A DNA stretch of 21,065 nucleotides, taken from IMG/VR virus record IMGVR_UViG_2778261619_000010, positions 1 through 21,065 of that record. One strand, written 5' to 3'. The position numbers and the translations under genes are program-made. The notes under the pieces are model-generated. The model had not been told where the DNA came from. It worked only from the letters and a program-made list of their open reading frames with translations, and did not search any database. Shown in pieces: positions 1-21,065 of this stretch. Position 1 is the stretch's first letter, and the number at the start of each line of letters is the position of its first letter. This DNA comes from a virus (lineage: Duplodnaviria; Heunggongvirae; Uroviricota; Caudoviricetes).

Positions 1-1017
1 ATGAGCAGTGTAAGGACAGACAAGTTCATTAGGTATGGTTTTGCGGTTGTGGCGATAGTTGCCATACTCATTACTACTATCACAACCCCCAATCCCACAC
101 CTTATCAATATATAGTTTACCGAATAGTTCTGGCTCTGGCTGCCGGATGTATTGGTGCAGTTCTGCCTGGTTTCCTTGAAGTAAAATTTAATGGGTGGTT
201 AAGAGCATCTGGCGCAGTGGCGATCTTCGCTATAGTGTTTTTCATAAGCCCAGATTTGCTTCAACAAAATCCTGAATCTGCAAGTAAACCTGTACCGCCT
301 ACTGTGATTGATGCATATGCCGTTAATAGTTCCAATCGCGACAGATACCTCGAATTATTTCGAACAGGACAGTTCGGTCAGCGGGACAAGCTGCGCATCG
401 GTTGTGTTGAGTGGAGTGAATCATCGTGCGTGGCTGCTGGTAATTTTTTGCGATTGTTAAGCGAAGCTGGCTGGGAAATCGATTCTGACGCTGTATTCAG
501 AATGCAACCATCCGTGCCAGTTGAGGGGGTATCGATTGTAAGCCGTGGCGATGATCTGGTCGGTTTGCCAAAAGTACCACCCCACATGGGCCGTTGGAGT
601 CGATCAGACATTAGTTATGAAATTTTGACAGCGGCATTTAAATTGATGGGAGTTCCGGTTTATTTTTCCAGTGACCCGACATTACAACCAGGTACTACCG
701 GAGTGTACTTTGGACCGAAACCGAAACTGGATGCACCAGTCATGCAAAAAGATGAGAATGTGCGACGTGAGCTTCTCCGCTACGTCGGTTTGGGAATGAC
801 TATTCAGCGAGCCTGCTCTCAGCAGCCCGTCGAACTTTGTGGGGGTGAAATCTTTTCCTGGGAAACGTCGGTATCTTCGTTCCTAAGGCAGCAGAGATTC
901 AACTCCGATGCCGTAAACAGATGGCTTGCCTTGCCGCAGGTTAATGCGGCTTCGGCAACTGCAGACATGAAAATAAAGCTAGATTTGTTAATGTCATTTG
1001 TTCTGGGCATCGAGTAA
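1..1017 (+). CDS. membrane-anchored protein of unknown function (about three N-terminal TM helices, then a ~250-aa soluble domain)
   Basis: 338-aa ORF with ATG at position 1, so the true start may lie upstream of the window. Three hydrophobic stretches at roughly residues 12-29, 37-59 and 67-84, followed by a non-hydrophobic C-terminal region with no motif I recognise. Confidence 0.5.
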   Translation: MSSVRTDKFIRYGFAVVAIVAILITTITTPNPTPYQYIVYRIVLALAAGCIGAVLPGFLEVKFNGWLRASGAVAIFAIVFFISPDLLQQNPESASKPVPPTVIDAYAVNSSNRDRYLELFRTGQFGQRDKLRIGCVEWSESSCVAAGNFLRLLSEAGWEIDSDAVFRMQPSVPVEGVSIVSRGDDLVGLPKVPPHMGRWSRSDISYEILTAAFKLMGVPVYFSSDPTLQPGTTGVYFGPKPKLDAPVMQKDENVRRELLRYVGLGMTIQRACSQQPVELCGGEIFSWETSVSSFLRQQRFNSDAVNRWLALPQVNAASATADMKIKLDLLMSFVLGIE

Positions 1018-1660
1018 CTATACCTCTTGCGAGGATGATTGAGCGTCTAATGGACCAGCTTAGCCGTTAGCGCTATTTGTTTACGTAAGCCTGTGGAATC
1101 CAACTAGTGCTTCTACGATGCGTTGTTTGGTGAAAAAAAAGTGTTGAAGCACTGGTTTTAGACAACTAAAGCCACGATTTGCTCATGCGTCGAAAATGTA
1201 GTCGTCTACTGTGTAGCACGGAGGCGATATTCGTACGCTTACACTTGCCGATAGGCCACTGGGGAGTGTTCTTGGCACTAAGCTGCCAGGCCCGAAGGTC
1301 TGCTATGAGCGAGGGGCTGACATTCCTATTGGCATTCGGTGTGAGTTATCGGGGGCGGTCATGCGGCATACTTCCGATACAGGCGTTTCCAGCTCTGCCT
1401 GTTTCAGGGTTATATTAATCTGCTTTAGAATTAATCGTGGCTTTAGCATCTGCACATCGTGCTGGAGAAACCTGAGTGAACTAAATCATATTCCCTTTCT
1501 TCAGCTAATCAATTGATAGTTATGCGGAAAAAGTTACTTTGCTTGTCAATAATCCATTTCACATCCGTTAATCCAATGCTATGCGTCTTCGCATTAATCT
1601 GGAAAGGTAGTAAGTGAAATAAAAACTTAGCCAATGACTAATATCTGAGGATACTTTGTC

Positions 1661-4021
1661 ATGAAAAGTATGCAATCAAAAACGGGCTCTCCACTCGTTC
1701 GAACTGAAGCCGAGCTAGAAAGCCGGCTTACTTCAGCACTAAACATAGCATTTCCTAACATTCCTCGCGAAGATCTTATCGAACAGCGCCATTTTACCGT
1801 TCGGCTAGGCCATGGAACTTACAAAATAGATAGCGCCGCACACTGGAAAAAATACGGGCGAGCGGATGTTTTGATCTTTCATCGGGAGAGACCACTTGCG
1901 GTTATTGAACTGAAACGTGAAGACCTGACACTGACCCATGATGATTATGAACAGGCTCAAAGCTACGCTAACCAGTTAACACCACGTCCGCCTCTCGTTG
2001 TAGTTACGAACGGTAAAGATACGCGCGTTTATGACTCAAGTAATGGACAACAGTGGTCGGGTGGACAGGATGCCTCGGCAGCGGTAAACAAGATGCTCGC
2101 CAATTCTGCAAAGTTGGCGGCGGCTGACATGCGCTGGGCTATTGAAGCCTTGATGGGGCGAGAAACTAATGCTTGGGTGCCAGCTGTGCGAGAAGAAACA
2201 GCCCGGCTGCTGATTGATATAACTGATCAGCCTGGGCATTCAGAACATCCATTTGCCAACAACCTACTTTTTCCTCGCAAAATCACGTCTCTTGTAATTG
2301 AATCTGCTGTGATGGGTACAGCTTTCACTATCATTGAGGGTGATGCACAAAGCGGAAAAAGCAGTTGCCTCCGTGAAATTTCGCTAAAAACGGAAAGTAG
2401 CGATCTTTTGGCTGTCCTGATGTTACGAGGTTCCGGACCAGGACTATTTCAGGCTCTGGCCAATCTTTTTGCAGCTGAATTTGAATGGAATTTAACCTCA
2501 AATGATGCACGTAACTGGTTAAGACGAATGTCTAACTGCACTGAAGGTCCATCGCTTATGCTTGCTATCGACGACGTTGAACCAGGCTCCCAAATGGCTA
2601 CTGATCTTGAGGAACTTGCGGGTATACGTTTTGGCAACAGGCTGGTGGTTGTTCTGACGACCTATCATGCCAACGCGTTACTGAAAAATCCAAACGGACG
2701 AACTCCGTCTGCAATTGGTAGCCGGTCGAAGGTATTTAAAACATCGCCTATGTCCCTAGATGAATTTAAGCTGGCGCAACAGATTCTCTCGGACCAGCGG
2801 ATAGTTTTTCAACAGGGAGCAGAATACGCCGATGACTACCGCTCGCCTTGGGTTCTTCGCACTATTTATGATGACATTGTGCGCAATCATCAATACCAGA
2901 AAACGGATCTTATCGCCTATCTTCCTCCATCACCCGGTATGGAACTTATAGATGCTGCGCAAAAGAGCTATGAGAGTCAGTATGATCTTCTTCGTTATTA
3001 TCGGGTTCTTGCACGCTGCGCACTAGCTGACACAAACTCCCACTCAGTAGAATTAATGTTTGCTAAAGCGAATGGATTTGTCGTGCGGTATGACGCACTT
3101 TCTGACGAAGCTCGTGGTGTAGTGAATGAGTTAAAACATATGGGGGCAGTTCGTATTTTTCGCCTTTCAGGATGGGAAGATGTTGTGGTGCCGACAGTTC
3201 CCGCAGCTTACCTTCTGGAACTGTCGGATGCTGTTTGTGATGAACTGGTTTTACGGGCAGAACAAGACCCTCAAGACGCCGGGGCTTGGCTTGGCGAACG
3301 GCTAGATGCCACTTATCTTGGAGATATGATCGGTGCTCAAGCCATACGCCGTATGGCAGCTAAAGAGAGATATTTCAGCTTTGGAATTATTCAGGGCCTT
3401 CTCAGCATTGAGCCATATAAAGAACCTATAAAAAACGGATTGTTTACTTTAGCCATGCCAGACAACCAACAAGTCAATCTAAAGATTGAGGATGGATTAG
3501 CGTGGATTTCTAAACACGGGGATGATGCAAAGAGTGTTCTGGTGAATTTAGAGGATCAAATCCCAAAGGTCATTTCTAAATCAACCAGTTGGATGATACT
3601 CGGGCAACTAGCGAAACTGCCGTCAGCAGAGGTGGGTGACGATGATCAGCGTATAGACGCCTATATTTTACTGAGCATTGGGCGCTGCCCATTTCCTCTA
3701 ATTCGCACGAATATAGAAGGATTGCCTTACTTTGAGCATAATTTTGGCGATCAGGGTGATGTTCTTTGCCTAGAAAAAGCGTCTATTGAAGTTGCTACTC
3801 AGGCGATGGCTGATTTATTTTCAGCCCCATGGCTCTATGCGGACCAGTGGGTGGATACAGCTATCGCGACCGGTTCTATACATTTACTGCATCGTTTGTT
3901 TGCTGCTTTAAACACAGTGATATTGCGTAGAATACCCGTGCAATCCGACTGGGCTAATGAAGCACTTAATCAACGTGTCTCACCAGCCCTTAAGGAAGCC
4001 ATACGATCATTATCTTCGTGA
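1661..4021 (+). CDS. multidomain protein: N-terminal HsdR_N/Mrr-like PD-(D/E)xK nuclease-like domain, central P-loop NTPase, large uncharacterised C-terminal region; candidate phage-defence protein
   Basis: 786-aa uninterrupted ORF, ATG preceded by GAGGA about 9 nt upstream. Residues 66-88 GRADVLIFHRERPLAVIELKRED give a D69...E83-x-K85 motif, followed by VVVTNGKDTRVYD as in HsdR N-terminal domains. Walker A GDAQSGKS (227-234) and Walker B LMLAIDDVE (299-307). No helicase DEAD/DExH motif seen. Confidence 0.6.
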   Translation: MKSMQSKTGSPLVRTEAELESRLTSALNIAFPNIPREDLIEQRHFTVRLGHGTYKIDSAAHWKKYGRADVLIFHRERPLAVIELKREDLTLTHDDYEQAQSYANQLTPRPPLVVVTNGKDTRVYDSSNGQQWSGGQDASAAVNKMLANSAKLAAADMRWAIEALMGRETNAWVPAVREETARLLIDITDQPGHSEHPFANNLLFPRKITSLVIESAVMGTAFTIIEGDAQSGKSSCLREISLKTESSDLLAVLMLRGSGPGLFQALANLFAAEFEWNLTSNDARNWLRRMSNCTEGPSLMLAIDDVEPGSQMATDLEELAGIRFGNRLVVVLTTYHANALLKNPNGRTPSAIGSRSKVFKTSPMSLDEFKLAQQILSDQRIVFQQGAEYADDYRSPWVLRTIYDDIVRNHQYQKTDLIAYLPPSPGMELIDAAQKSYESQYDLLRYYRVLARCALADTNSHSVELMFAKANGFVVRYDALSDEARGVVNELKHMGAVRIFRLSGWEDVVVPTVPAAYLLELSDAVCDELVLRAEQDPQDAGAWLGERLDATYLGDMIGAQAIRRMAAKERYFSFGIIQGLLSIEPYKEPIKNGLFTLAMPDNQQVNLKIEDGLAWISKHGDDAKSVLVNLEDQIPKVISKSTSWMILGQLAKLPSAEVGDDDQRIDAYILLSIGRCPFPLIRTNIEGLPYFEHNFGDQGDVLCLEKASIEVATQAMADLFSAPWLYADQWVDTAIATGSIHLLHRLFAALNTVILRRIPVQSDWANEALNQRVSPALKEAIRSLSS

Positions 4022-4197
4022 CTAAGCAATGGGATTTTAATACATAACGAGCATCTGTCCACGCAAGTTAACAATTGCCTTGGCTCGATATTTTGGTTTC
4101 TAGTGCATATATGCTGATCTTCTCTTCGTTGATCTGATCTTACCCACCAATAGTGGACACAGGACTAAGTGAGTAAACTCTCAACCAGAGGTGACTC

Positions 4198-4497
4198 ATG
4201 ACAAAACCAGTATCAATCAGCAAGAAGCCCCGTGAACAACATTCGCCTGAATTTCGTAACGAAGCCCTGAAACTCGCTGAACGCATCGGTGTGGCCGCCG
4301 CAGCCCGTGAACTCAGCCTTTATGAATCTCAGCTTTATGCCTGGCGCAGTAAACAGCAGCAACAAATGAGTTCGTCAGAGCGCGAAAGCGAACTGGCCGC
4401 TGAAAATGTCCGCCTTAAACGACAACTGGCGGAGCAGGCTGAGGAACTGGCCATCCTCCAAAAGGCCGCGACATACTTCGCGAATCGCCTGAAATGA
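4198..4497 (+). CDS. insE: IS3 transposase OrfA (HTH and leucine-zipper part)
   Basis: 99-aa product [31 protein letters not shown]...[16 protein letters not shown], near-identical in pattern to IS3 OrfA as I recall it. Confidence 0.85.
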
Positions 4498-5337
4498 AGT
4501 ATGTCTTCATCGAAAATCATCGGGCAGAGTTCTGCATCAAAGCGATGTGTCGTGTACTTCGGGTTGCCCGCAGCGGCTGGTATGTCTGGCTCAGGCGTCG
4601 TCACCAGATGAGCCTTCGCCAACAGTTTCGGCTCACCTGCGATGCCGCTGTCCATAAGGCATTCTTTGAGGCAAAGCAGCGGTACGGTGCTCCCCGCCTT
4701 GCTGACGAACTGCCGGAGTTCAATATTAAAACCATTGCCGCCAGCCTGCGTCGTCAGGGGCTGCGGGCGAAAGTTCAGCCCGGTCAGCTACCGTGCACAT
4801 GGCCTGCCCGTATTGGAGAATCTGCTGGAGCAGGACTTCAGCGCCAGAGGCCCGAACCAGAAGTGGGCGGGTGACATCACGTACTTGCGTACCGATGAGG
4901 GCTGGTTGTATCTCGCAGTAGTCATCGACCTGTGGTCACGCGCCGTCATTGGCTGGTCGATGTCACCGCGAATGACAGCACAACTGGCCTGTGATGCACT
5001 ACAAATGGCGTTGTGGCGGAGAAGACGCCCGGAAAGCGTCATTGTTCATACGGACCGTGGTGGTCAATACTGTTCAGGGGATTATCAGGCGCTGCTGAAG
5101 CGACACAACCTGCGTGGCAGTATGAGTGCGAAAGGCTACTGTTATGACAATGCCTGTGTGGAAAGCTTCTTTCATTCGCTGAAGGTGGAATGTATCCACG
5201 GGGAACGCTTTAGCAGCCGGGAAATAATGCGGGCAACGGTGTTTAATTATATCGAGTGTGATTACAATCGCTGGCGTCGTCACAGTGCCTGTGGCGGTCT
5301 CAGCCCGGAACAATTTGAAAACCATAATCTCGCTTAG
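4494..5337 (+). pseudogene. insF: IS3 transposase OrfB (DDE catalytic domain), split by an internal frameshift
   Basis: OrfB begins in the -1 frame overlapping the orfA stop (ATGA) as expected, but the reading frame changes again near 4760-4780. Two overlapping ORFs (4494-4874 and 4642-5337) together carry OrfB sequence (...[10 protein letters not shown] then [14 protein letters not shown]...DRGGQYCS...). Consistent with a short deletion inside orfB, so this IS copy is probably transposition-defective by itself. Confidence 0.65.
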
Positions 5338-5367
5338 GGCCGTGTCCACATTACGTGGGTAGGTTCA

Positions 5368-5490
5368 ATTTTCCTGATGACCCCATCGACATAGTATTTT
5401 TTCAAAGCAAGAATTGCCTTCTCGCTATGTATTCCTGATAGCTTGATCAGGATATCAAAGTCTCTTTCAGATATATTCCCCTTTGTCATG
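5368..5490 (-). pseudogene. 5' part of a small minus-strand ORF interrupted by the IS3 insertion
   Basis: ATG at 5490 with GGAG 5 nt upstream on the minus strand. 41 codons (MTKGNISERDFDILIKLSGIHSEKAILALKKYYVDGVIRK...) run directly into the IS3 right terminus. An in-frame continuation exists on the other side of IS3 (minus strand, about 3965-4134) if a 3-bp target duplication is assumed. Confidence 0.35.
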
Positions 5491-6058
5491 TGTCACTCCA
5501 TGAATCAAATTTCATAGTAATCAATCTTTCTTTGATCGACTTATAGATAATAAGATCAGAAATGATAAAAAAGTAACGTATATTTCTTCTCGTCATGTCT
5601 ACTTATAAAATTCAAATGAACTAACCTGAACTACTTACACTGGAATATCATTATATTGGAATAATTATAAAACTGAACAAAATGGTCAATGTAATCTGGT
5701 TAATTTATAAATATTTACATTGCGTGATGATATTTAATTCCAGTGTTAAGTAATGTCACATGCCTATTATTGGTTACTACTTTGTAGGTGTTTTGGTTCG
5801 GCGTTAATATCATTGGTCATAATCACCTGTGAAAGTTTATTCTTGAAATGTAATAGGTATATTACTTGCAATTAAAAATGAGAAATTTATTATTATTGTG
5901 TTTTGCAAATATAATAATTAAAAATTTATTATAAATTATGATTAGAATTGACAATATAAAAGAATAATAAAACTCAATATGAAAATAATTATCATCTGGT
6001 TTGATACTTTTGCTGTTGATTACAGGAATAAAGTGTCAGAATAATATTGTTATTGGGT

Positions 6059-6086
6059 AAAAAAAGCCTCCACTATATGTGGAGGC
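6059..6086 (-). terminator. rho-independent terminator-like hairpin (minus strand)
   Basis: Perfect 8-bp stem GCCTCCAC/GTGGAGGC with a 5-nt loop; on the minus strand it is followed by a run of 7 T. Confidence 0.5.
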
Positions 6087-6678
6087 AAACCCTTAGATAG
6101 TTCTATTGAGGCAAGTATGTTATAAATCTGCCTTATCTTTTATAGCATATAAAGATATGTATGCTATATTTTTTTTGAAGAAATTTTTCCAGAAATTACA
6201 GTAATACAAGAAATATTAACTGGTGTGATTTTTGGATGTTTAATAAGTACAGTGTACTTATATTTTTGTAATAAAGATGAACGCCTCCTTTAGATAAACT
6301 GAAAAATATTAAGCATGTCTCATGTGGTTTTCTGAATCAAAACTCTTTTCAGTCTTTGATTTTTTGTTAAAAACAGGTTTATTGCAAGGGTGTTGTTGTG
6401 AAATGTGTTTTGGTGTCGTTGTGATTTTATGGTGATAATGTGAATTTTTATCCTTTCAAGATGGCTCCCTGGACGTTAAATACAGTGGAAATTTATATTA
6501 AGATATAAATATAACTATTGCGTTATTTAAATTATTGTCTATTACAGCTCCAGTTAATAGAGCCTGAAGTAATTTCTTAGTATTTCATCATAAGCGTTTA
6601 TCTATCGTCTCTTTCTAAATTAACCGGTCGTATTACAAGGTGCTGAATCTGATTAAGGAATGATACTTAGGGGATTAT

Positions 6679-6739
6679 GGCTGACTTAATAATTAGATAA
6701 CTGATAAATGACTATCAGGGGGATATCGTTAAGTCAGCC
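6679..6739. repeat. nested inverted repeat immediately downstream of the integrase stop
   Basis: Perfect 11-bp arms GGCTGACTTAA (6679-6689) and TTAAGTCAGCC (6729-6739) enclosing an inner palindrome CTGATA...TATCAG (6701-6718). No adjacent T-run. Confidence 0.55.
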
Positions 6740-6754
6740 TTTAAAATCAAGCGA

Positions 6755-7945
6755 TTATATAGCTGGTGACTCTTTTCGAAGAGCATCAAGGTAGTCAGCG
6801 TACCATTGCATCATTTCTCGTCTTCCTTCAAGGTAACGAGCATGGTTGTATGTACCACGAATGCTGTTTTTGTCCGTATGTGCAAGTTGCATTTCAATCC
6901 ATGCACTATTGAATCCTTGCTCGTGTAGAACAGTACTCATTGTATGACGAAATCCATGCCCGGTAGCTTTTTTGTCATAGCCAATCTTCTTCAAAACCAT
7001 ATTGACGCTTGCATCGCTGATAGGCCTGTTAACATCATTTCTTCCGGCAAAGATGTATCTGTATCTTCCAGTCAGTTCTTTGAGGATTTGCAGAGACTGG
7101 ATTGCCTGATCTGACAGAGGGACGATATGCTCCTTCCTCATTTTCATCCGGGTCGGAGGAACTTCCCATATCTTTTGGGTAAAATCGATCTCACACCATT
7201 CCCCCATACGTAATTCTACTGTTCTCAGCCCTGTGAGCATCAACAATTTTGTAGCTTCACGGGTTACAATACTGCCGGTGTAGTTTTCGAGTTTGTATAA
7301 AAACTCTGGTAGTTCAGGAGGAAGCAGGAAAGGGTAATGTGTTCGCTTATAGCTTTTCATTGCTATAACCAGATCAGAAGCTGGATTGTATCGTGCCCGA
7401 CCTGTAACAATGGCATACCGAAACACTTCACCACATCGTTGGCGAACTTTATTAGCTAGCTCGCAGGCTCCTCGGCTTTCGATACGCTGAAGAACTGCGA
7501 GAAGTTCAAGAGGTTCGATTTCACTAATGGGTCTGTTTCCAATGTAGGGAAACACATTATTTTTGAATGCTCTGTCGACATAATCAGCGTAGCTGGCAGA
7601 CCAGCCTGAAACTTTTGCGTTGTACCACTCGGTGGCGATTGCGGCAAAAGTTCTTCCTTCGGAAAGGTTTTTCTCAAGATTTTCAGCTTTCTTGACTTCA
7701 CCGGGATCTTTACCATCGGCATGTATTTTCTTGGCTTCATCCCGACGTTTGCGAGCTTCAGCCAATGTAATAGTTGGATAGGTGCCAAATGATAGTTTCT
7801 TTTCCTTCCCCGCATAGTGGTACTTCATTCGCCAGTACTTTGAGCCGTTAGGATTGACCTGAAGGTAGAGCCCACCACCATCGGCAATCTTATAAATTTT
7901 ATCTTTGGGTTTGGCTGTTTCAACTTGTCGAGCTGTCAGTGGCAT
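6755..7945 (-). CDS. int: P4-family (IntS/CP4-57-like) tyrosine integrase
   Basis: N-terminus MPLTARQVETAKPKDKIYKIADGGGLYLQVNPNGSKYWRMKY... is typical of P4-type integrases. C-terminal HGFRHT and IRGTYNHARYLEGRREMMQW supply the HxxR and catalytic Tyr. The ORF-track start at 7972 is a TTG; the ATG at 7945 is the more likely start. Confidence 0.9.
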   Translation of the reverse strand: MPLTARQVETAKPKDKIYKIADGGGLYLQVNPNGSKYWRMKYHYAGKEKKLSFGTYPTITLAEARKRRDEAKKIHADGKDPGEVKKAENLEKNLSEGRTFAAIATEWYNAKVSGWSASYADYVDRAFKNNVFPYIGNRPISEIEPLELLAVLQRIESRGACELANKVRQRCGEVFRYAIVTGRARYNPASDLVIAMKSYKRTHYPFLLPPELPEFLYKLENYTGSIVTREATKLLMLTGLRTVELRMGEWCEIDFTQKIWEVPPTRMKMRKEHIVPLSDQAIQSLQILKELTGRYRYIFAGRNDVNRPISDASVNMVLKKIGYDKKATGHGFRHTMSTVLHEQGFNSAWIEMQLAHTDKNSIRGTYNHARYLEGRREMMQWYADYLDALRKESPAI

Positions 7946-8120
7946 CTGGGGGCCTCGCAATAGATTGACCAAGATGTGCCCCTAAATAGGCCCCCAAATG
8001 TGACTTGATTTACGTTCCCCTGAGGAGAATTAAGGCGACTATTTGAGTAACATAAGTAAGGGTATGTGCTGATTATAAAGGCTTTTTGTGGGGTATGGTA
8101 GATTTCAGGAGAGGTGTGCA

Positions 8121-8160
8121 TGGTGTCCGAATAGGGAATCGAACCTGCAAATCAGGCAAG
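8121..8160 (-). other. tRNA 3'-end-like sequence (candidate att core or remnant), not a functional tRNA
   Basis: Minus strand reads ...TTGCAGGTTCGATTCCCTATTCGGACACCA: a T-loop motif GGTTCGATTCC and a terminal CCA resembling the 3' end of tRNA-Arg/Thr genes as I recall them, but the T-stem cannot pair and no D or anticodon arm lies upstream. Confidence 0.4.
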
Positions 8161-8181
8161 AAAAAACCGCCATCAGGCGGC
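8161..8181 (-). terminator. rho-independent terminator-like hairpin (minus strand) between early-left genes and att/int
   Basis: Minus strand CCGCC-TGAT-GGCGG followed by TTTTTT. Confidence 0.45.
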
Positions 8182-8352
8182 TTGGTGTTCTTTCAGTTCT
8201 TCAATTCGAATATTGGTTACTTCTGCATGTGCTATCTGCGCCCATATCATCCAGTGGTTATAGCAGTCGTTGATGTCCTCTGCTTCGATAACCCTGTTGA
8301 ATGGTTCTCCATTCCATTCACCTGTGACTCGGAAGTGCATTTATCATCTCCA

Positions 8353-8377
8353 TAAAACAAAACTCGCCGTAGCGAGT
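8353..8377 (-). terminator. terminator-like hairpin downstream of the 181-aa early gene (minus strand)
   Basis: Minus strand ACTCGC-TACG-GCGAGT followed by TTTTGTTTTA. Confidence 0.4.
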
Positions 8378-8440
8378 TCAGATAAAAGAAATCCCCGCGA
8401 ATGCGAGGATTGTTATTCACCTTTGACGGCAAGTTGCAGG

Positions 8441-17070: not shown

Positions 17071-17763
17071 ATGTTATATGCATTTAAGCTGGGCAGAAAA
17101 CTGCGCGGCGAGGAACCTTATTGCCCTGAAAAGGGTGGGAAAGGTGGCAGTTCTGATAAAAGCGCAAAGTATGCCGCAGAAGCTCAGAAGTATGCAGCAG
17201 ACCTGCAAAATCAGCAGTGGCAGACGATCATGAAAAACCTTGCTCCGTTCACGCCTCTTGCGGAGCAGTATGTTAACCAGTTGCAGAATCTTTCCAGTTT
17301 AGAAGGTCAGGGGCAGGCACTTAATCAGTATTACAACTCTCAGCAGTATAAAGACCTTGCAGGTCAGGCGCGTTACCAGAGTCTTGCTGCTGCGGAGGCG
17401 ACGGGTGGACTTGGTTCGACAGCCACAAGCAATCAACTGGCTACGATCGCGCCGACTCTCGGTCAGTCTTGGTTATCAAACCAGATGAGCAATTACAACA
17501 ATCTGGCAAACGTTGGGCTTGGTGCTCTGCAAGGTCAGGCAAACGCCGGGCAGACGTACGCCAACAACATGAGCAGCATTGCACAGCAAAGCGCAGCTCT
17601 TGCCGCTGCTAATGCCAACAAACCATCAAGTCTTCAGACAGCAATTAGCGGCGGAACGTCCGGTGCGATTGCCGGTGCAGGTCTTGCCAGCCTTTTGGGA
17701 ACATCAACGCCTTGGGGCGCTGGCATTGGTGCTGGTATCGGATTGCTTGGCTCGTTGTTTTAA
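17071..17763 (+). CDS. ejection (DNA-injection) protein, P22 gp7-like
   Basis: 230 aa; MLYAFKLGRKLRGEEPYCPEKGGKGGSSDKSAKYAAEAQKYAADLQNQQW..., Gln/Ala/Gly-rich, hydrophobic Gly-rich C-terminus; matches the P22 gp7 pattern and position. Confidence 0.8.
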   Translation: MLYAFKLGRKLRGEEPYCPEKGGKGGSSDKSAKYAAEAQKYAADLQNQQWQTIMKNLAPFTPLAEQYVNQLQNLSSLEGQGQALNQYYNSQQYKDLAGQARYQSLAAAEATGGLGSTATSNQLATIAPTLGQSWLSNQMSNYNNLANVGLGALQGQANAGQTYANNMSSIAQQSAALAAANANKPSSLQTAISGGTSGAIAGAGLASLLGTSTPWGAGIGAGIGLLGSLF

Positions 17764-17772
17764 GGGGTAATC

Positions 17773-19068
17773 ATGGCTACTTGGCAAGGAACAAACGGCG
17801 GATTGTTGGCTGGTATCGGCGGCGTCAACTCAAACGCTCCGAGCGTAAATGACATCGGCAATACGCTTCAGCTTATCAGGCAGAACAATGATATTGAGCG
17901 TTCAGGCGCTAACAATGTTGGGCTGACTGCTTTGCAAGGCCTTTCAGGTATTGCAGGGGTGTTTCAGCAGGAAAAGCAGGCTCAGCGGCAGAAAGAATTT
18001 CAGCAGGCGTACGCTAATGCTTATGCGTCTGGTGATCGCGGTGCTTTGCGTCAGTTGGCTACTCAATATCCAGACCAGATTGAATCCGTTCGTAAAGGCA
18101 TGGGATTCATTGATGAAGACCAGCGTAATTCTATCGGCACCTTAGCGGCTGGCGCACGCCTTGCGTCATCGTCTCCAGAAGCAATGCAATCATGGCTGCA
18201 AAACAACGCCAAGGAACTGAATCGCGTCGGTGTTGACCCTAATAACGTTGCTCAGATGTATCAGCAGAATCCTTCAGGATTTGGTGAGTTTGTTGATCAC
18301 CTTGGAATGGCTGCGCTTGGTCCGATTGATTACTTCAATGTTCAGGACAAGATGGCTGGTCGTGAAATTGACCGAGGCAGGCTGGCAGAGACAATCCGCA
18401 GCAATCAGGCAGGTGAAGCACTAACAGCTCGAGGTCAGGACATCCAGATACGTGGACAGAACATCAGCGCACAGAATGCTGCTCTTTCCCGAGAAATACA
18501 AAGAGCAGAATTACAAGAAAAGGCTCTGGACAGACAGATAGCCAGAGAAAGCAATCAGTTAAAGCTTGAAGAGCTAAAACAGAAACAGGCAGATGTTCGG
18601 CAAAAGGCTGACATAGCCCGCGCTGACAGGCAGGCCGCCGCTCAGGGTGCAGTTGATACGTTCAGCACCGCGCTTGATTCTCTCAACGAGATAGAGCAAA
18701 GCCCCGGCCTTTCAAAAGCAGTAGGAATTCGCTCAGCGTTTCCGACAGTTCCTGGCTCTGATGCGGCTAACTTTGAAGCAAGGCTCGACACCTTTAAAGC
18801 TCAAACATTCCTTCCTATGGTGCAGTCCCTGAAGGGTATGGGTGCTCTTTCAGATGCTGAGGGTAAAAAATTATCCGATGCGGTTGGTGCCCTAAGCCCC
18901 AAAATGAGTGAAAAGGCTTTTCGTGACTCTATCGGAAAGATTAGAAATCAGCTTGAAAGCAAGTTGAGCACTGTTAAAAAACAGTTTGATTATCAGGAGC
19001 CAGTACAGAATACGCCAGCGCAACAACCTACTACTGGCAGTAATTTTTCTTCACTATGGGGTGATTAA
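17773..19068 (+). CDS. ejection protein, P22 gp20-like
   Basis: 431 aa, Gln/Ala-rich with coiled-coil-like segments; position between gp7-like and gp16-like genes. Confidence 0.7.
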   Translation: MATWQGTNGGLLAGIGGVNSNAPSVNDIGNTLQLIRQNNDIERSGANNVGLTALQGLSGIAGVFQQEKQAQRQKEFQQAYANAYASGDRGALRQLATQYPDQIESVRKGMGFIDEDQRNSIGTLAAGARLASSSPEAMQSWLQNNAKELNRVGVDPNNVAQMYQQNPSGFGEFVDHLGMAALGPIDYFNVQDKMAGREIDRGRLAETIRSNQAGEALTARGQDIQIRGQNISAQNAALSREIQRAELQEKALDRQIARESNQLKLEELKQKQADVRQKADIARADRQAAAQGAVDTFSTALDSLNEIEQSPGLSKAVGIRSAFPTVPGSDAANFEARLDTFKAQTFLPMVQSLKGMGALSDAEGKKLSDAVGALSPKMSEKAFRDSIGKIRNQLESKLSTVKKQFDYQEPVQNTPAQQPTTGSNFSSLWGD

Positions 19069-21065
19069 TGGCTAAAGCATGGAAAGATGTTATCGCCTCT
19101 CCACAGTATCAGGCGTTAGCACCAGAACAAAAAGCGCAAGCTCAGGAGCAATACTTCAATGAAGTCGTGGCCCCGCAAGCCGGAGAAAATGCAGAGCAGG
19201 CTAAGCAAGCTTTCTATGCTGCCTATCCATTGCCATCTGTACAGCCAGTGGAGACACAGCAACCAGTAGCACAGCAACAACCACAGCAAAGTGGATTTAT
19301 GTCTGATCTTGGCGAAGCAGTAAAAGAGACTGGTCGCGGACTGGTGCAGGCTGGCGTGAACGTGGCAAATATACCTGCATCAGTTGCCGATGCTGTAACA
19401 AGCGCGGCGGCTTGGGCTGGCGGTAAACTCGGCATTGGCGATGGTACATATCAACCAGCGCCACGAGTAACAACGCAGGGATTAGAGCAGGACTTTGGCC
19501 TTCAGCAAGGCGCGCTGACTCCACAAACGACAGAGGGAAGGGTATTTGCTGAAGCATTGCCTTACCTCACTCCTGCTGGCGTTGAGAGAGCGGCGGTACA
19601 GGCACCAACACTTGCTGGTCGAATTGCTCAGGGGGCAACTCGCCTTCTAGCAGAAAACGCAGTTGGATCACTTGCTGCAAATAGTGCGAAAGATGATGCG
19701 GAAGCACTCGCCACCGATTTAGGCGTTGGTGTACTTGCTGGCGGTGCTATTAACGCTGCTGGACGTGGATTAGGTGCTGCTTATCGTGGCGTTCGTGGTG
19801 CTATCGCGCCAGAAGCGCAGCAGGCTATCAGATTTGCAGAGCGTGAAGGAGTTCCTCTGCACACCACAGACCTGTTACAACCAACTTCCCGCGTCGGAAA
19901 AATGGCGCAGACTACAGCAGAAAATATCCCCCTGGCTGGCACAAGCGGAATGAGAGCAACGCAACAGGAAGCGAGAAGCCAGTTGGTGCAGAGATTTGCT
20001 GATAAATTCGGTGAGTATGATCCAGCTGTTGTTATTGACAGCCTTAAAGCGAAAACATCAGGAATTCGTCGTGCCGCCGGTAATCGACTGGAGCAGGTTC
20101 AGAATGCTATGGCTGGAGTAAACATTCAGCCTGCGCGAGCAATTCAGCAGATTGATACAGAAATATCTAACCTGCAGAAGCTTGGTAAGGTTGCTGATAA
20201 CGAGACTATTTCAAAACTTCAGTCCTATCGTGATGAGCTTGTTCGCAATGCTAGTCCTGATGGTCCGGTAAATCTGGATTTGAAGCAATTAAGCGATCTG
20301 CGCAGCCAGTTCAGAATGGACGTGAAGGGGGAACGACCAGTGTTACCAAACCGTTCCGATGCTGCCATTCAGCGCGTTTACAAGGCGATGACAGACGATA
20401 TCAATGGTGCCATTGGTCAGAATCTTGGCAACGATACTCTCCGTAAATATCAGCAGGCCAATGCCGTCTACGCTGACGAAGCGGCGAAACTAAAGAATAC
20501 CAGGATGAAGAATGTTCTCATGAAAGGCGACCTGACGCCGGAAGTTGTCAACAACATGCTATTCAGCAAGAACAAATCGGAAATTAAGACGCTGTATAAC
20601 TCAGTTGGTCGTGTTGGTAGGGCGCAAATGCGCAATGGCATCATTGGAAAGGCGATGGAGAAATCTGGCGGATCCCCTGACCAGTTCCTTCGGCAGCTTA
20701 ACATCCTGCAAAACCAGACTGGCATCACATTTAAGGGGCAGGACGCTGCTTATCTGAAAGGATTAAAAAACTACCTGCAATCCACGCAGCAGGCTGCAAA
20801 AGCGGCAGTAACAACACCTACAGGGCAGCAAACTATCCCGTTCATTATCGGGTATGGGACGGCAATGAACCCGGCGACAACTGGCGCAGCGGTAAGCTAC
20901 GGACTTCTTACTCGCGCCTATGAGAGCGAGCCATTCAGAAATGCAATGCTCCGAATGGCAAACACCCCACGCGGATCAACAGCGTTTGAGAAAGCCATGC
21001 AGCAGGCGCAAAAGGCCATTAACGCCCTGACGCAGGGGGCTAAGTCTGATGCGTTGTCAGAATAG
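19068..21065 (+). CDS. ejection protein, P22 gp16-like
   Basis: 665 aa; start overlaps the previous stop (TAATG); Ala/Gln/Gly-rich; last gene of the ejection module, ending at the window edge with a TAG stop. Confidence 0.7.
   Translation: MAKAWKDVIASPQYQALAPEQKAQAQEQYFNEVVAPQAGENAEQAKQAFYAAYPLPSVQPVETQQPVAQQQPQQSGFMSDLGEAVKETGRGLVQAGVNVANIPASVADAVTSAAAWAGGKLGIGDGTYQPAPRVTTQGLEQDFGLQQGALTPQTTEGRVFAEALPYLTPAGVERAAVQAPTLAGRIAQGATRLLAENAVGSLAANSAKDDAEALATDLGVGVLAGGAINAAGRGLGAAYRGVRGAIAPEAQQAIRFAEREGVPLHTTDLLQPTSRVGKMAQTTAENIPLAGTSGMRATQQEARSQLVQRFADKFGEYDPAVVIDSLKAKTSGIRRAAGNRLEQVQNAMAGVNIQPARAIQQIDTEISNLQKLGKVADNETISKLQSYRDELVRNASPDGPVNLDLKQLSDLRSQFRMDVKGERPVLPNRSDAAIQRVYKAMTDDINGAIGQNLGNDTLRKYQQANAVYADEAAKLKNTRMKNVLMKGDLTPEVVNNMLFSKNKSEIKTLYNSVGRVGRAQMRNGIIGKAMEKSGGSPDQFLRQLNILQNQTGITFKGQDAAYLKGLKNYLQSTQQAAKAAVTTPTGQQTIPFIIGYGTAMNPATTGAAVSYGLLTRAYESEPFRNAMLRMANTPRGSTAFEKAMQQAQKAINALTQGAKSDALSE

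Follow-up and report, generated by a model that had tools for sequence, protein, structure and literature searches.

Adjacent deletion mediated by insertion sequences (ISs), homologous recombination between IS copies and the ‘nearly precise excision’ of transposable elements are textbook phenomena. Of the described elements, the closest to the one considered here are ISEc16, which belongs to the IS3 group of the IS3 family and is represented by the intact copy of Escherichia coli 4FM (L006, positions 1501–2744, 1,244 bp; element name as in the RefSeq annotation), and the canonical IS3 of E. coli K-12 (1,258 bp). Next to it lies the remnant of a gene of the PapB/FocB/TosR family of small adhesin regulators (Pfam PF03333; FocB structure 3M8J), a family that includes members with no link to fimbrial operons (PMC12388093).

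Here we describe the junction at which these two features meet in a DNA stretch of 21,065 nucleotides (the window, to which all coordinates refer unless stated otherwise). Both the IS and the PapB-like remnant are already annotated in RefSeq. The explanation that we favour, giving the full history a probability of roughly 85%, is that the ISEc16 copy occupies a rearrangement breakpoint that joins two unrelated modules of an E. coli island integrated at argW.

A defective ISEc16-like element

At the junction is a defective ISEc16-like insertion sequence of 1,233 bp (positions 4135–5367, plus strand), and the IS3-family element proposed in the initial annotation is thus real. Its inverted repeats, one on the left (IRL, 4135–4173, plus strand, starting TGATCTTACCC) and one on the right (IRR, 5329–5367, plus strand), are 39 nt long and imperfect, with 74% complementarity, and end 5′-TG...CA-3′ (TGATC... 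and ...GTTCA), as is characteristic of the IS3 family. The tip of IRR carries an A-to-T substitution at 5364 and reads GGTTCA, whereas most other island copies of the IS carry GGATCA. Also typical of the family is the layout of the coding region, in which an HTH-type orfA is overlapped in the −1 frame by an orfB that encodes an rve (DDE) domain. The intact orfA (4198–4497, plus strand) encodes 99 aa (HTH_Tnp_1, PF01527, E=1.2e-9). The 5′ part of orfB (4494–4874, plus strand) loses its frame where 11 bp are deleted between 4770 and 4771, and terminates at 4874; the 3′ part (4642–5337, plus strand), in a frame that differs from that of the orfB start, encodes the catalytic domain (PF00665, E=1.2e-28, with PF13333 and PF13683 also matched on this segment). 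An AAAAG stretch (4460–4464), in the region of which the RefSeq coding sequences of IS3 and ISEc16 annotate a programmed frameshift, is unchanged in the alignment with both elements.

Inverted repeats, orfA/orfB layout, AAAAG stretch and, bar 11 bp, length are all shared with ISEc16. Apart from the 11-bp deletion, where intact ISEc16 reads AAGCCAGCCGG, the two sequences differ by 13 substitutions and are 98.9% identical, exceeding the 95% full-length threshold; the window copy is set apart by this orfB deletion, the substitution at 5364 and the lack of a matching 3-bp duplication. Canonical IS3 shares the family architecture and is about 90% identical over the last ~200 bp, but only about 79% identical over the first 1,016 nt, with length differences of 2, 12 and 11 bp. 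The earlier label ‘IS3 copy’ is therefore right as to the family and wrong as to the element, which is ISEc16 rather than canonical IS3.

The continuous OrfAB transposase of an autonomous element is absent, and RefSeq marks the window copy as ‘frameshifted’. With its DDE domain cut off from the OrfAB fusion by the 11-bp deletion, the IS can produce no transposase of its own, and on its sequence it is to be regarded as a non-autonomous copy of ISEc16. The extra frameshift that had been proposed within orfB is borne out, the alignment to the reference copy defining the lesion. The same deletion junction is common to all copies examined at the locus (window, L001, L024 and L025).

A truncated PapB-like gene

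Abutting the right end of the IS is the remnant of a PapB/FocB-family regulator gene on the minus strand (5368–5489), the native part of which amounts to 122 nt. Its ATG (5489–5487) has a GGAG 7 nt upstream, in agreement with the good ribosome-binding site noted previously, and opens a run of 40 codons and 2 further nt that reaches the IS; the start at 5490 and the 41 codons first given for this ORF are to be corrected accordingly. A conserved 36-codon upstream ORF at 5486–5596 overlaps the start of the remnant. The match to the Pfam PapB profile (E=1.1e-10, 41.8 bits against a cut-off of 29.4) indicates that the small ORF is more than a chance reading frame. It covers profile positions 19–57 of 91, the C-terminal half of the domain (approximately positions 58–88) being missing: the N-terminal half is matched by the 40 native residues, which end at the position equivalent to PapB K62/E63, with the rest of the domain absent. 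Residues 61–70 of PapB are reportedly needed for DNA binding. RefSeq annotates the remnant as a 51-aa protein (5334–5489) that reads on into the IS, and this product, devoid of the C-terminal half of the PapB domain, is most likely non-functional.

How the gene once continued can be seen from an intact relative, the 76-aa protein P0014, which spans PapB profile positions 19–88 of 91 and continues ...VIRKI|ACFDSNLSQSYFSIAARKF... past the point where the window enters the IS. No part of the window matches the last 35 residues of P0014, and nucleotide homology between the two loci (L007, positions 7751–8122, corresponding to window positions 5739–5368) ends exactly at the IS end. In related argW islands the P0014 gene occupies the same integrase-proximal place, after yfdC, tRNA-Arg, integrase and spacer. 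Being only about 84% identical at the nucleotide level, it is a cousin allele and not the direct ancestor. Beside it lie an AraC-type regulator gene and the decayed gene of a SPATE-like autotransporter.

The left flank and the 3-bp repeats

To the left of the IS is gene B (1661–4021, plus strand), which encodes 786 aa with an HSDR_N domain and is a convergent neighbour untouched by the IS. Between gene B and the IS is downstream DNA (4022–4134) that does not correspond to the missing 3′ half of the PapB gene and is probably non-coding. In three other E. coli genomes (L029, L030 and L002) the left-flank DNA runs on without an IS into unrelated sequence; L029 and L030 match window positions 1–4136 at about 98%, and then contain 2,070 bp of other DNA followed by an ISEc16-like copy in the same orientation. 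A reading of the left flank as the end of another gene was dropped, the homologue search with the 43-aa ORF of L002 returning a single 43-aa protein; the left-flank reading frame itself has no Pfam match. PADLOC gave weak HSDR_N-type matches on gene B only, with none for gene A or the PapB-like proteins; an Rfam search of positions 1–12,000 gave no match, a promoter and terminator scan of 3900–6800 did not rise above the shuffled expectation, and a hairpin at the left junction was not significant (z = 0.61). Relatives of gene B in other taxa are 44–66% identical; their downstream DNA is not alignable, and they are therefore uninformative on the junction.

Flanking the IS are the trinucleotides ATC on the left (4132–4134) and ATT on the right (5368–5370), which differ as initially stated. 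They agree at two of the three positions, and do not form the direct target duplication of a simple insertion. The right flank is part of the PapB-like gene (AAA AT. on the minus strand), L007 reading AGA AAA ATA at the matching point, and the left flank occurs once at the uninterrupted L029-type site GTTGATC|TGCATAG. The control copy of IS3 in K-12 is flanked by a perfect duplication, ATC/ATC; none of three other distinct ISEc16 insertions is (CCG/AGT, GAT/GTT and TTT/TAT), so that a missing duplication is, on its own, weak evidence. An alternative IS boundary at the tandem TGATC-TGATC (4130–4139) likewise yields no duplication and was therefore rejected. Of the two origins suggested for the unlike flanks, decay and IS-mediated rearrangement, the comparisons of both flanks favour the second: an IS that marks an IS-associated deletion or recombination would explain ATC versus ATT.

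With one 3-bp flank removed, the small ORF continues in frame on the left of the IS for 21 codons (INEEKISIYALETKISSQGNC), 61 aa in total, to a stop at 4068–4070, 46 nt short of the gene B stop (4019–4021). The initial annotation had it continue for about 55 codons and overlap the 3′ end of gene B; because the ATG is at 5489 and the native part is 122 nt, this 54-codon frame (stop 3970–3972) is off by one and out of register in the window. The IS does truncate a small gene beside gene B, as was proposed, but the gene has no continuation beyond the IS and cannot be rebuilt by removing it, the PapB 3′ half being absent from the window and the left flank natively continuing elsewhere.

IS-free alleles

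A synthetic query joining 300 bp of each flank found the flanks contiguous in 0 of 244 flank-bearing genomes among 5,426 complete E. coli genomes, and exact-pattern scans for an empty site, with 0–6 nt between the flanks, gave no match in genome and metagenome contigs. With the window-type PapB allele, an uninterrupted junction would read ...AGGAAAAT straight into CAACGAAGAG.... IS-free alleles come from short-read Logan assemblies only (three runs, SRR10207506, SRR5438292 and SRR30008579), in which three rare contigs contain two different junction scars, equal to the window flanks minus 6 nt (L004 and L005) or minus 8 nt (L013). Relative to L004, the occupied allele keeps 3 nt (AAT) more of the ancestral PapB reading. 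Spanning the junction is an ORF of 60 aa in L004 and L005 and of 92 aa in L013, the latter in the frame first proposed; an ORF across IS-free junctions was thus found as anticipated, in the form of mutually different chimeras rather than the original gene.

At ten SNP sites compared in seven sequences, L013 shares the haplotype of the IS-bearing L025, and L004 and L005 are on another, placing the IS-free contigs on haplotypes mixed among IS-bearing ones, to the extent that seven sequences can tell. From these comparisons we infer that the IS-free alleles are secondary losses of the IS that created the chimeric 60-aa and 92-aa ORFs. The 92-aa ORF of L013 overlaps the 3′ end of gene B by 52 nt and could affect gene B expression. 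A truncated PapB-like product might also still be made in IS-bearing strains, and might act as a dominant-negative partner of other PapB/FocB/TosR regulators, since it keeps the N-terminal, oligomerization-side half of the protein without the DNA-binding half; that this and the effect on gene B both apply seems to us a long shot.

Proposed history of the junction

To the right of the IS is a conserved integrase-proximal backbone, comprising integrase, AT-rich spacer and the first 122 nt of the PapB-type gene, and to the left is a cargo module of gene B and gene A, to which related loci add a DEAD helicase, an ATPase and a TerB protein. In the history that we favour, ISEc16 would first have inserted into an intact PapB-like gene of ~76 codons, after nucleotide 122. 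The outcome of the rearrangement that followed is visible in the window: the 3′ half of this gene is gone, together with all DNA as far as a point 113 bp beyond gene B, and the unlike flanks ATC and ATT are left. The route would have been a deletion beside the IS or else homologous recombination between it and another ISEc16 copy. An intermediate in which ISEc16 interrupts an otherwise complete PapB-like gene and is flanked by an ATT/ATT duplication was not seen. The 11-bp deletion in orfB then disconnected the DDE domain, and in the window the tip of the right inverted repeat changed as well.

In other strains the IS subsequently served as portable homology, as in strain 6EVA, where an IS3/ISEc16 hybrid has a new left flank; the identity of about 90% over the last ~200 bp is enough for such a hybrid. 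Recombination at the IS is directly seen in L003, in which the element is of the K-12 IS3 type to alignment column 1048 and of the ISEc16 type from column 1075, with the same right flank as the window and a different left flank. Finally, imprecise deletion of the IS in a few strains would have given rise to the chimeric ORFs.

The best surviving alternative, although improbable, is that an earlier event not involving an IS fused the truncated PapB-like gene to the DNA downstream of gene B, the 60-aa allele being ancestral and ISEc16 inserting later. The occurrence of IS-free alleles in three independent sequencing runs is compatible with this order of events, but the IS would have had to land within 0–3 nt of the older breakpoint in an island of >10 kb, and insertion into CGTTG|TTCCTG cannot yield the six extra nucleotides, of which ATT matches the intact PapB gene and ATC the uninterrupted L029 site. 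The differing IS-free junctions on different haplotypes, interleaved with IS-bearing ones, place the IS-free alleles inside IS-bearing diversity (in a small sample of seven sequences), and repeated identical insertions would be needed, because the examined IS copies share both the 11-bp deletion and the junctions.

Harder still to sustain is a simple insertion, followed by mutation of its 3-bp duplication, in which the two halves of the gene flank the IS and its removal restores the original. That the frame is open for 61 aa, that a 60-aa ORF spans the junction in two of the IS-free contigs and that a single transition separates ATC from ATT would all suit such an insertion. The restored tail, however, lifts the PapB score merely from 41.8 to 42.5 bits, with the alignment ending at profile position 62 of 91; the true C terminus of the family, as in P0014 and FocB, is different and absent from the window, the native continuation of the left flank is unrelated DNA, and the two junctions of the three IS-free contigs are at odds with one another and with the predicted empty site. 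Equally doubtful is that the IS-free junctions are artefacts of short-read de Bruijn assembly and that no natural IS-free allele exists: although they are confined to Logan contigs, with none in the complete E. coli genomes or the genome and metagenome pattern scans, L004 and L005, from independent runs, have one scar in common and L013, from a third, has another, a junction k-mer should have to occur in reads to be assembled, and the main conclusion on the IS breakpoint is unchanged either way.

Implications and comparison with known rearrangements

The importance of a breakpoint at the IS is mainly one of housekeeping. No small partner gene is there to be restored beside the candidate defence gene B, and a ‘repaired’ small ORF from this locus is unsuitable for cloning in tests of gene B. 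By marking where the cargo (gene B, gene A and the helicase, ATPase and TerB genes) gives way to the integrase backbone, the IS helps to delimit the candidate defence system, the same cargo occurring elsewhere in E. coli without the window junction (L029 and L030). More generally, an IS-free sequence may itself be a scar of secondary excision, and such scars can yield plausible-looking but chimeric ORFs.

Nothing at the junction is mechanistically new, and it represents ordinary island decay. As after adjacent deletion or inter-IS recombination, a single IS without a target duplication lies between sequences that are elsewhere non-contiguous; and as in nearly precise excision, the scars attributed to subsequent IS loss are small, with 0–2 nt of microhomology.

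The insertion sequence and its lesion

Beside the candidate defence gene B (1661–4021, plus strand) is an IS3-family element of 1,233 bp (4135–5367), bounded by 39-nt imperfect terminal inverted repeats ending TG…CA. The initial annotation placed it in the right family but took it for IS3 itself; canonical IS3 matches its first 1,016 nt at only ~79% identity, whereas copies named ISEc16 by RefSeq are 97–98% identical to it. Its orfA (4198–4497; 99 aa, HTH_Tnp_1) is intact, the 5′ part of orfB runs from 4494 to a stop at 4874, and the rve/DDE domain (4642–5337) lies in its own frame, apart from the orfB start.

Against an intact ISEc16 of 1,244 bp (E. coli 4FM, L006:1501–2744; CDS annotated with a programmed frameshift), the window copy differs by 13 substitutions and one 11-bp deletion between 4770 and 4771, where ISEc16 carries AAGCCAGCCGG. 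Because this changes the reading frame ahead of the DDE domain, orfB is not intact and the element cannot encode an OrfAB transposase. The AAAAG stretch in the orfA–orfB overlap (4460–4464) is unaltered, and this lesion therefore comes on top of the programmed frameshift, bearing out the extra orfB frameshift proposed initially. The identical deletion junction occurs in all three other IS-bearing loci examined (L001, L024 and L025), and RefSeq labels the copy ‘frameshifted’. Four bases from the right tip, at 5364, the window carries an A-to-T change; most other island copies retain GGATCA. Continued production of the intact OrfA is a matter of speculation.

A truncated PapB-like gene

Running into the right end of the IS is a small minus-strand ORF with, as first noted, a good ribosome-binding site (GGAG, 7 nt upstream). 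Its ATG is at 5489–5487, one base left of the 5490 originally assigned, and 122 nt (40 codons plus 2 nt, not 41 codons) lead to the IS end, within which a stop at 5334–5336 gives a total of 51 aa. The ORF's 40 native residues score above the curated cut-off for Pfam PapB (PF03333; E=1.1e-10), spanning just profile positions 19–57 of 91; RefSeq names the 51-aa ORF ‘PapB/FocB family fimbrial expression transcriptional regulator’.

Scanning 1.8 billion representative proteins in full retrieved an intact relative, P0014 (76 aa). This protein is common, being listed in 266 index blocks, and its first 40 residues are 92% identical to the window ORF. Past the junction point it reads ...VIRKI-ACFDSNLSQSYFSIAARKFEFTLMLINELSARVYQ, covers PapB positions 19–88 and also aligns to the FocB structure 3M8J; nothing in the window matches its last 35 residues. 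Its locus (yfdC, tRNA-Arg, integrase, spacer, PapB-like gene) places it as in the window island, followed 3′ by an AraC-type regulator and a decayed SPATE-like autotransporter, and nucleotide homology with the window (83.7%) breaks off precisely at the IS end (5368). The gene beside gene B is truncated by the IS, as had been suggested, and its C-terminal half is missing; any residual activity of the 51-aa remnant is speculative.

Overlapping the PapB-like start codon by ATGA is a 36-codon minus-strand ORF (5486–5596; MTRRNIRYFFIISDLIIYKSIKERLITMKFDSWSDT). It is open in two loci with the intact 76-aa gene (L007 and L010), with 30 of 36 residues identical and DNA identity of just ~84%, and may represent a conserved leader, or a small gene coupled to the regulator.

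Left of the IS, the initial annotation had the ORF continuing for about 55 codons into gene B. The corresponding 54-codon frame (stop 3970–3972) is out of register, because the ATG was misplaced and 41 codons were counted. Once the ATG is corrected and one 3-bp flank taken out, 21 further codons are open (INEEKISIYALETKISSQGNC), stopping at 4068–4070, 46 nt short of the gene B stop. Adding this tail lifts the PapB score just from 41.8 to 42.5 bits, the alignment ending at position 62, and the left-flank frame has no homologues except one 43-aa ORF. A restorable ORF across the IS is rejected, since the tail is not PapB-like, the intact relative continues differently and the left flank continues elsewhere; we treat 4022–4134 as non-coding DNA downstream of gene B.

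The junction as a rearrangement breakpoint

Both IS flanks have different uninterrupted continuations elsewhere, the homology of each ending at the IS end, and the IS therefore bridges sequences that were not formerly neighbours. In E. coli EC476 (L029) and Z1323MEC0001 (L030), the same cargo set (ATPase, DEAD helicase, gene A and gene B; 98.4% identical to window 1–4136) occupies another chromosomal position. Beyond the equivalent of 4134 it continues IS-free (GTTGATC/TGCATAGACTG...) for 2,070 bp containing two small minus-strand genes and an IS3 fragment, followed by an ISEc16-like copy in the same orientation without the 11-bp deletion; a third E. coli locus, L002, is a further-deleted derivative. 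Both flanks occur in 244 of 5,426 complete E. coli genomes, always separated and contiguous in none.

Probably the IS first inserted into the PapB-like gene; a deletion adjacent to it, or recombination with a second ISEc16 copy, came next, and the 11-bp deletion last. Either route explains the unequal flanking triplets, ATC (4132–4134) on the left and ATT (5368–5370) on the right, so that of the two causes first offered for them, IS-mediated rearrangement stands and decay of a duplication is not needed. The mismatch alone would be unconvincing, as perfect duplications are also missing from the three other distinct ISEc16 insertions that we checked (a K-12 IS3 control has a perfect ATC/ATC).

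The IS has acted as a recombination substrate in relatives: strain 6EVA (L003) carries a hybrid that switches from K-12-type IS3 to ISEc16-type between alignment columns 1048 and 1075, with the window's right junction and a different left flank. Protein variants P0001, P0003 and P0005 diverge at the same codon into other sequences, the P0003 tail being, on our reading, an inverted IS3 left end.

IS-free alleles

ORFs across the junction do exist in IS-free loci: P0006 (60 aa; Logan contigs L004 and L005, word-indexed protein search) and P0013 (92 aa; contig L013, representative protein search), the latter in the frame of the initial annotation and overlapping gene B by 52 nt. Both loci have the order argW, integrase, spacer, ORF, gene B, gene A. 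In the papB sense (minus strand), the window reads AGGAAAAT/IS/GATCAACGAAG, L004 and L005 read AGGAA/CAACGAAG (AAT, IS and GAT gone), and L013 reads AGGAAA/CGAAGAG (AT, IS and GATCAA gone, with AA microhomology), both IS-free junctions being subsets of the window flanks. The additional AAT of the IS-bearing allele agrees with the intact PapB gene (AAA ATA in L007) and its additional GAT with the uninterrupted L029 site. At ten variable flank sites, L013 has the haplotype of the IS-bearing L025; L004 and L005 have a third, between those of L013/L025 and window/L001.

Were the IS-free state ancestral, an already-deleted IS would have to have inserted identically and repeatedly. These alleles are consistent with one gain and two later, independent losses, each imprecise, and the 60-aa and 92-aa ORFs would therefore be chimaeras, not the original gene. 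The losses probably came about through host-mediated illegitimate deletion spanning the inverted repeats. Decay of the L004 island copy extends to its integrase, which is broken into two ORFs of 221 and 161 aa (5545–6735; SRR10207506).

Island context and adjoining prophage

E. coli 13TMH22 shares 8,150 bp at 99.9% identity with the window, in the order yfdC, tRNA-Arg(CCU), integrase, AT-rich spacer, PapB remnant, IS, gene B, gene A and DEAD/DEAH helicase; in L013 an ATPase and a TerB protein come after the helicase. From this gene order, the locus lies in an argW-integrated island.

Gene A (338 aa) has no Pfam or PADLOC match, and HSDR_N is the sole domain of gene B (786 aa), relatives of which (44–66% identity) are found in Alphaproteobacteria and one other Enterobacteriaceae genome. 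The two (window 1–4021) always accompany a DEAD/DEAH helicase, a BrxC/BrxD-like ATPase and a TerB_N/TerB_C protein (L013:12730–16279; L029:1–7011), a trio that we take to resemble a Shango-type defence system. Gene B in the second-site block of L029 and L030 has been broken in two by a deletion of ~45 bp.

E. coli AGR6128 (L024, 5729–8278) has an extra ISEc23 (IS66 family) in the PapB remnant, just right of ISEc16, and an IS5 slightly beyond; this small region has therefore been struck repeatedly by insertion sequences. Between the remnant and the integrase gene is a 1.2-kb spacer (5500–6750; 23–33% G+C) with no ORF >40 aa, no Rfam family match and only patchy conservation in the related island L007. 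It contains a strong terminator-like hairpin on the minus strand (6086–6066; GCCTCCAC...GTGGAGGC, then a T run).

The chromosomal match ends inside the 3′ part of tRNA-Arg(CCU); 8121–8150 is a degenerate partial tRNA end, with GAATAG replacing CCTGCA at 8129–8134, and ARAGORN found no tRNA in the window. Past it (8151–21065) is an Sf6-like prophage, in which 12700–21065 matches the late genes of Shigella phage Sf6 at 97% identity. Sf6 integrates at argW, and island and prophage are probably in tandem there. The prophage appears internally deleted, as a cI-like repressor gene (11009–11725) directly adjoins an apparent partial terminase gene (11774–12631).

Relation to known elements

The gain lies in corrections: the ATG, frame and IS identity are revised, there is no ORF to restore, and the cargo/backbone boundary beside gene B is now clearly delimited. 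RefSeq annotation of both the IS and the 51-aa ORF exists in hundreds of genomes, and nothing here falls outside established categories: the IS and the regulator family already have names, and both IS-mediated rearrangement and excision scars are textbook phenomena.
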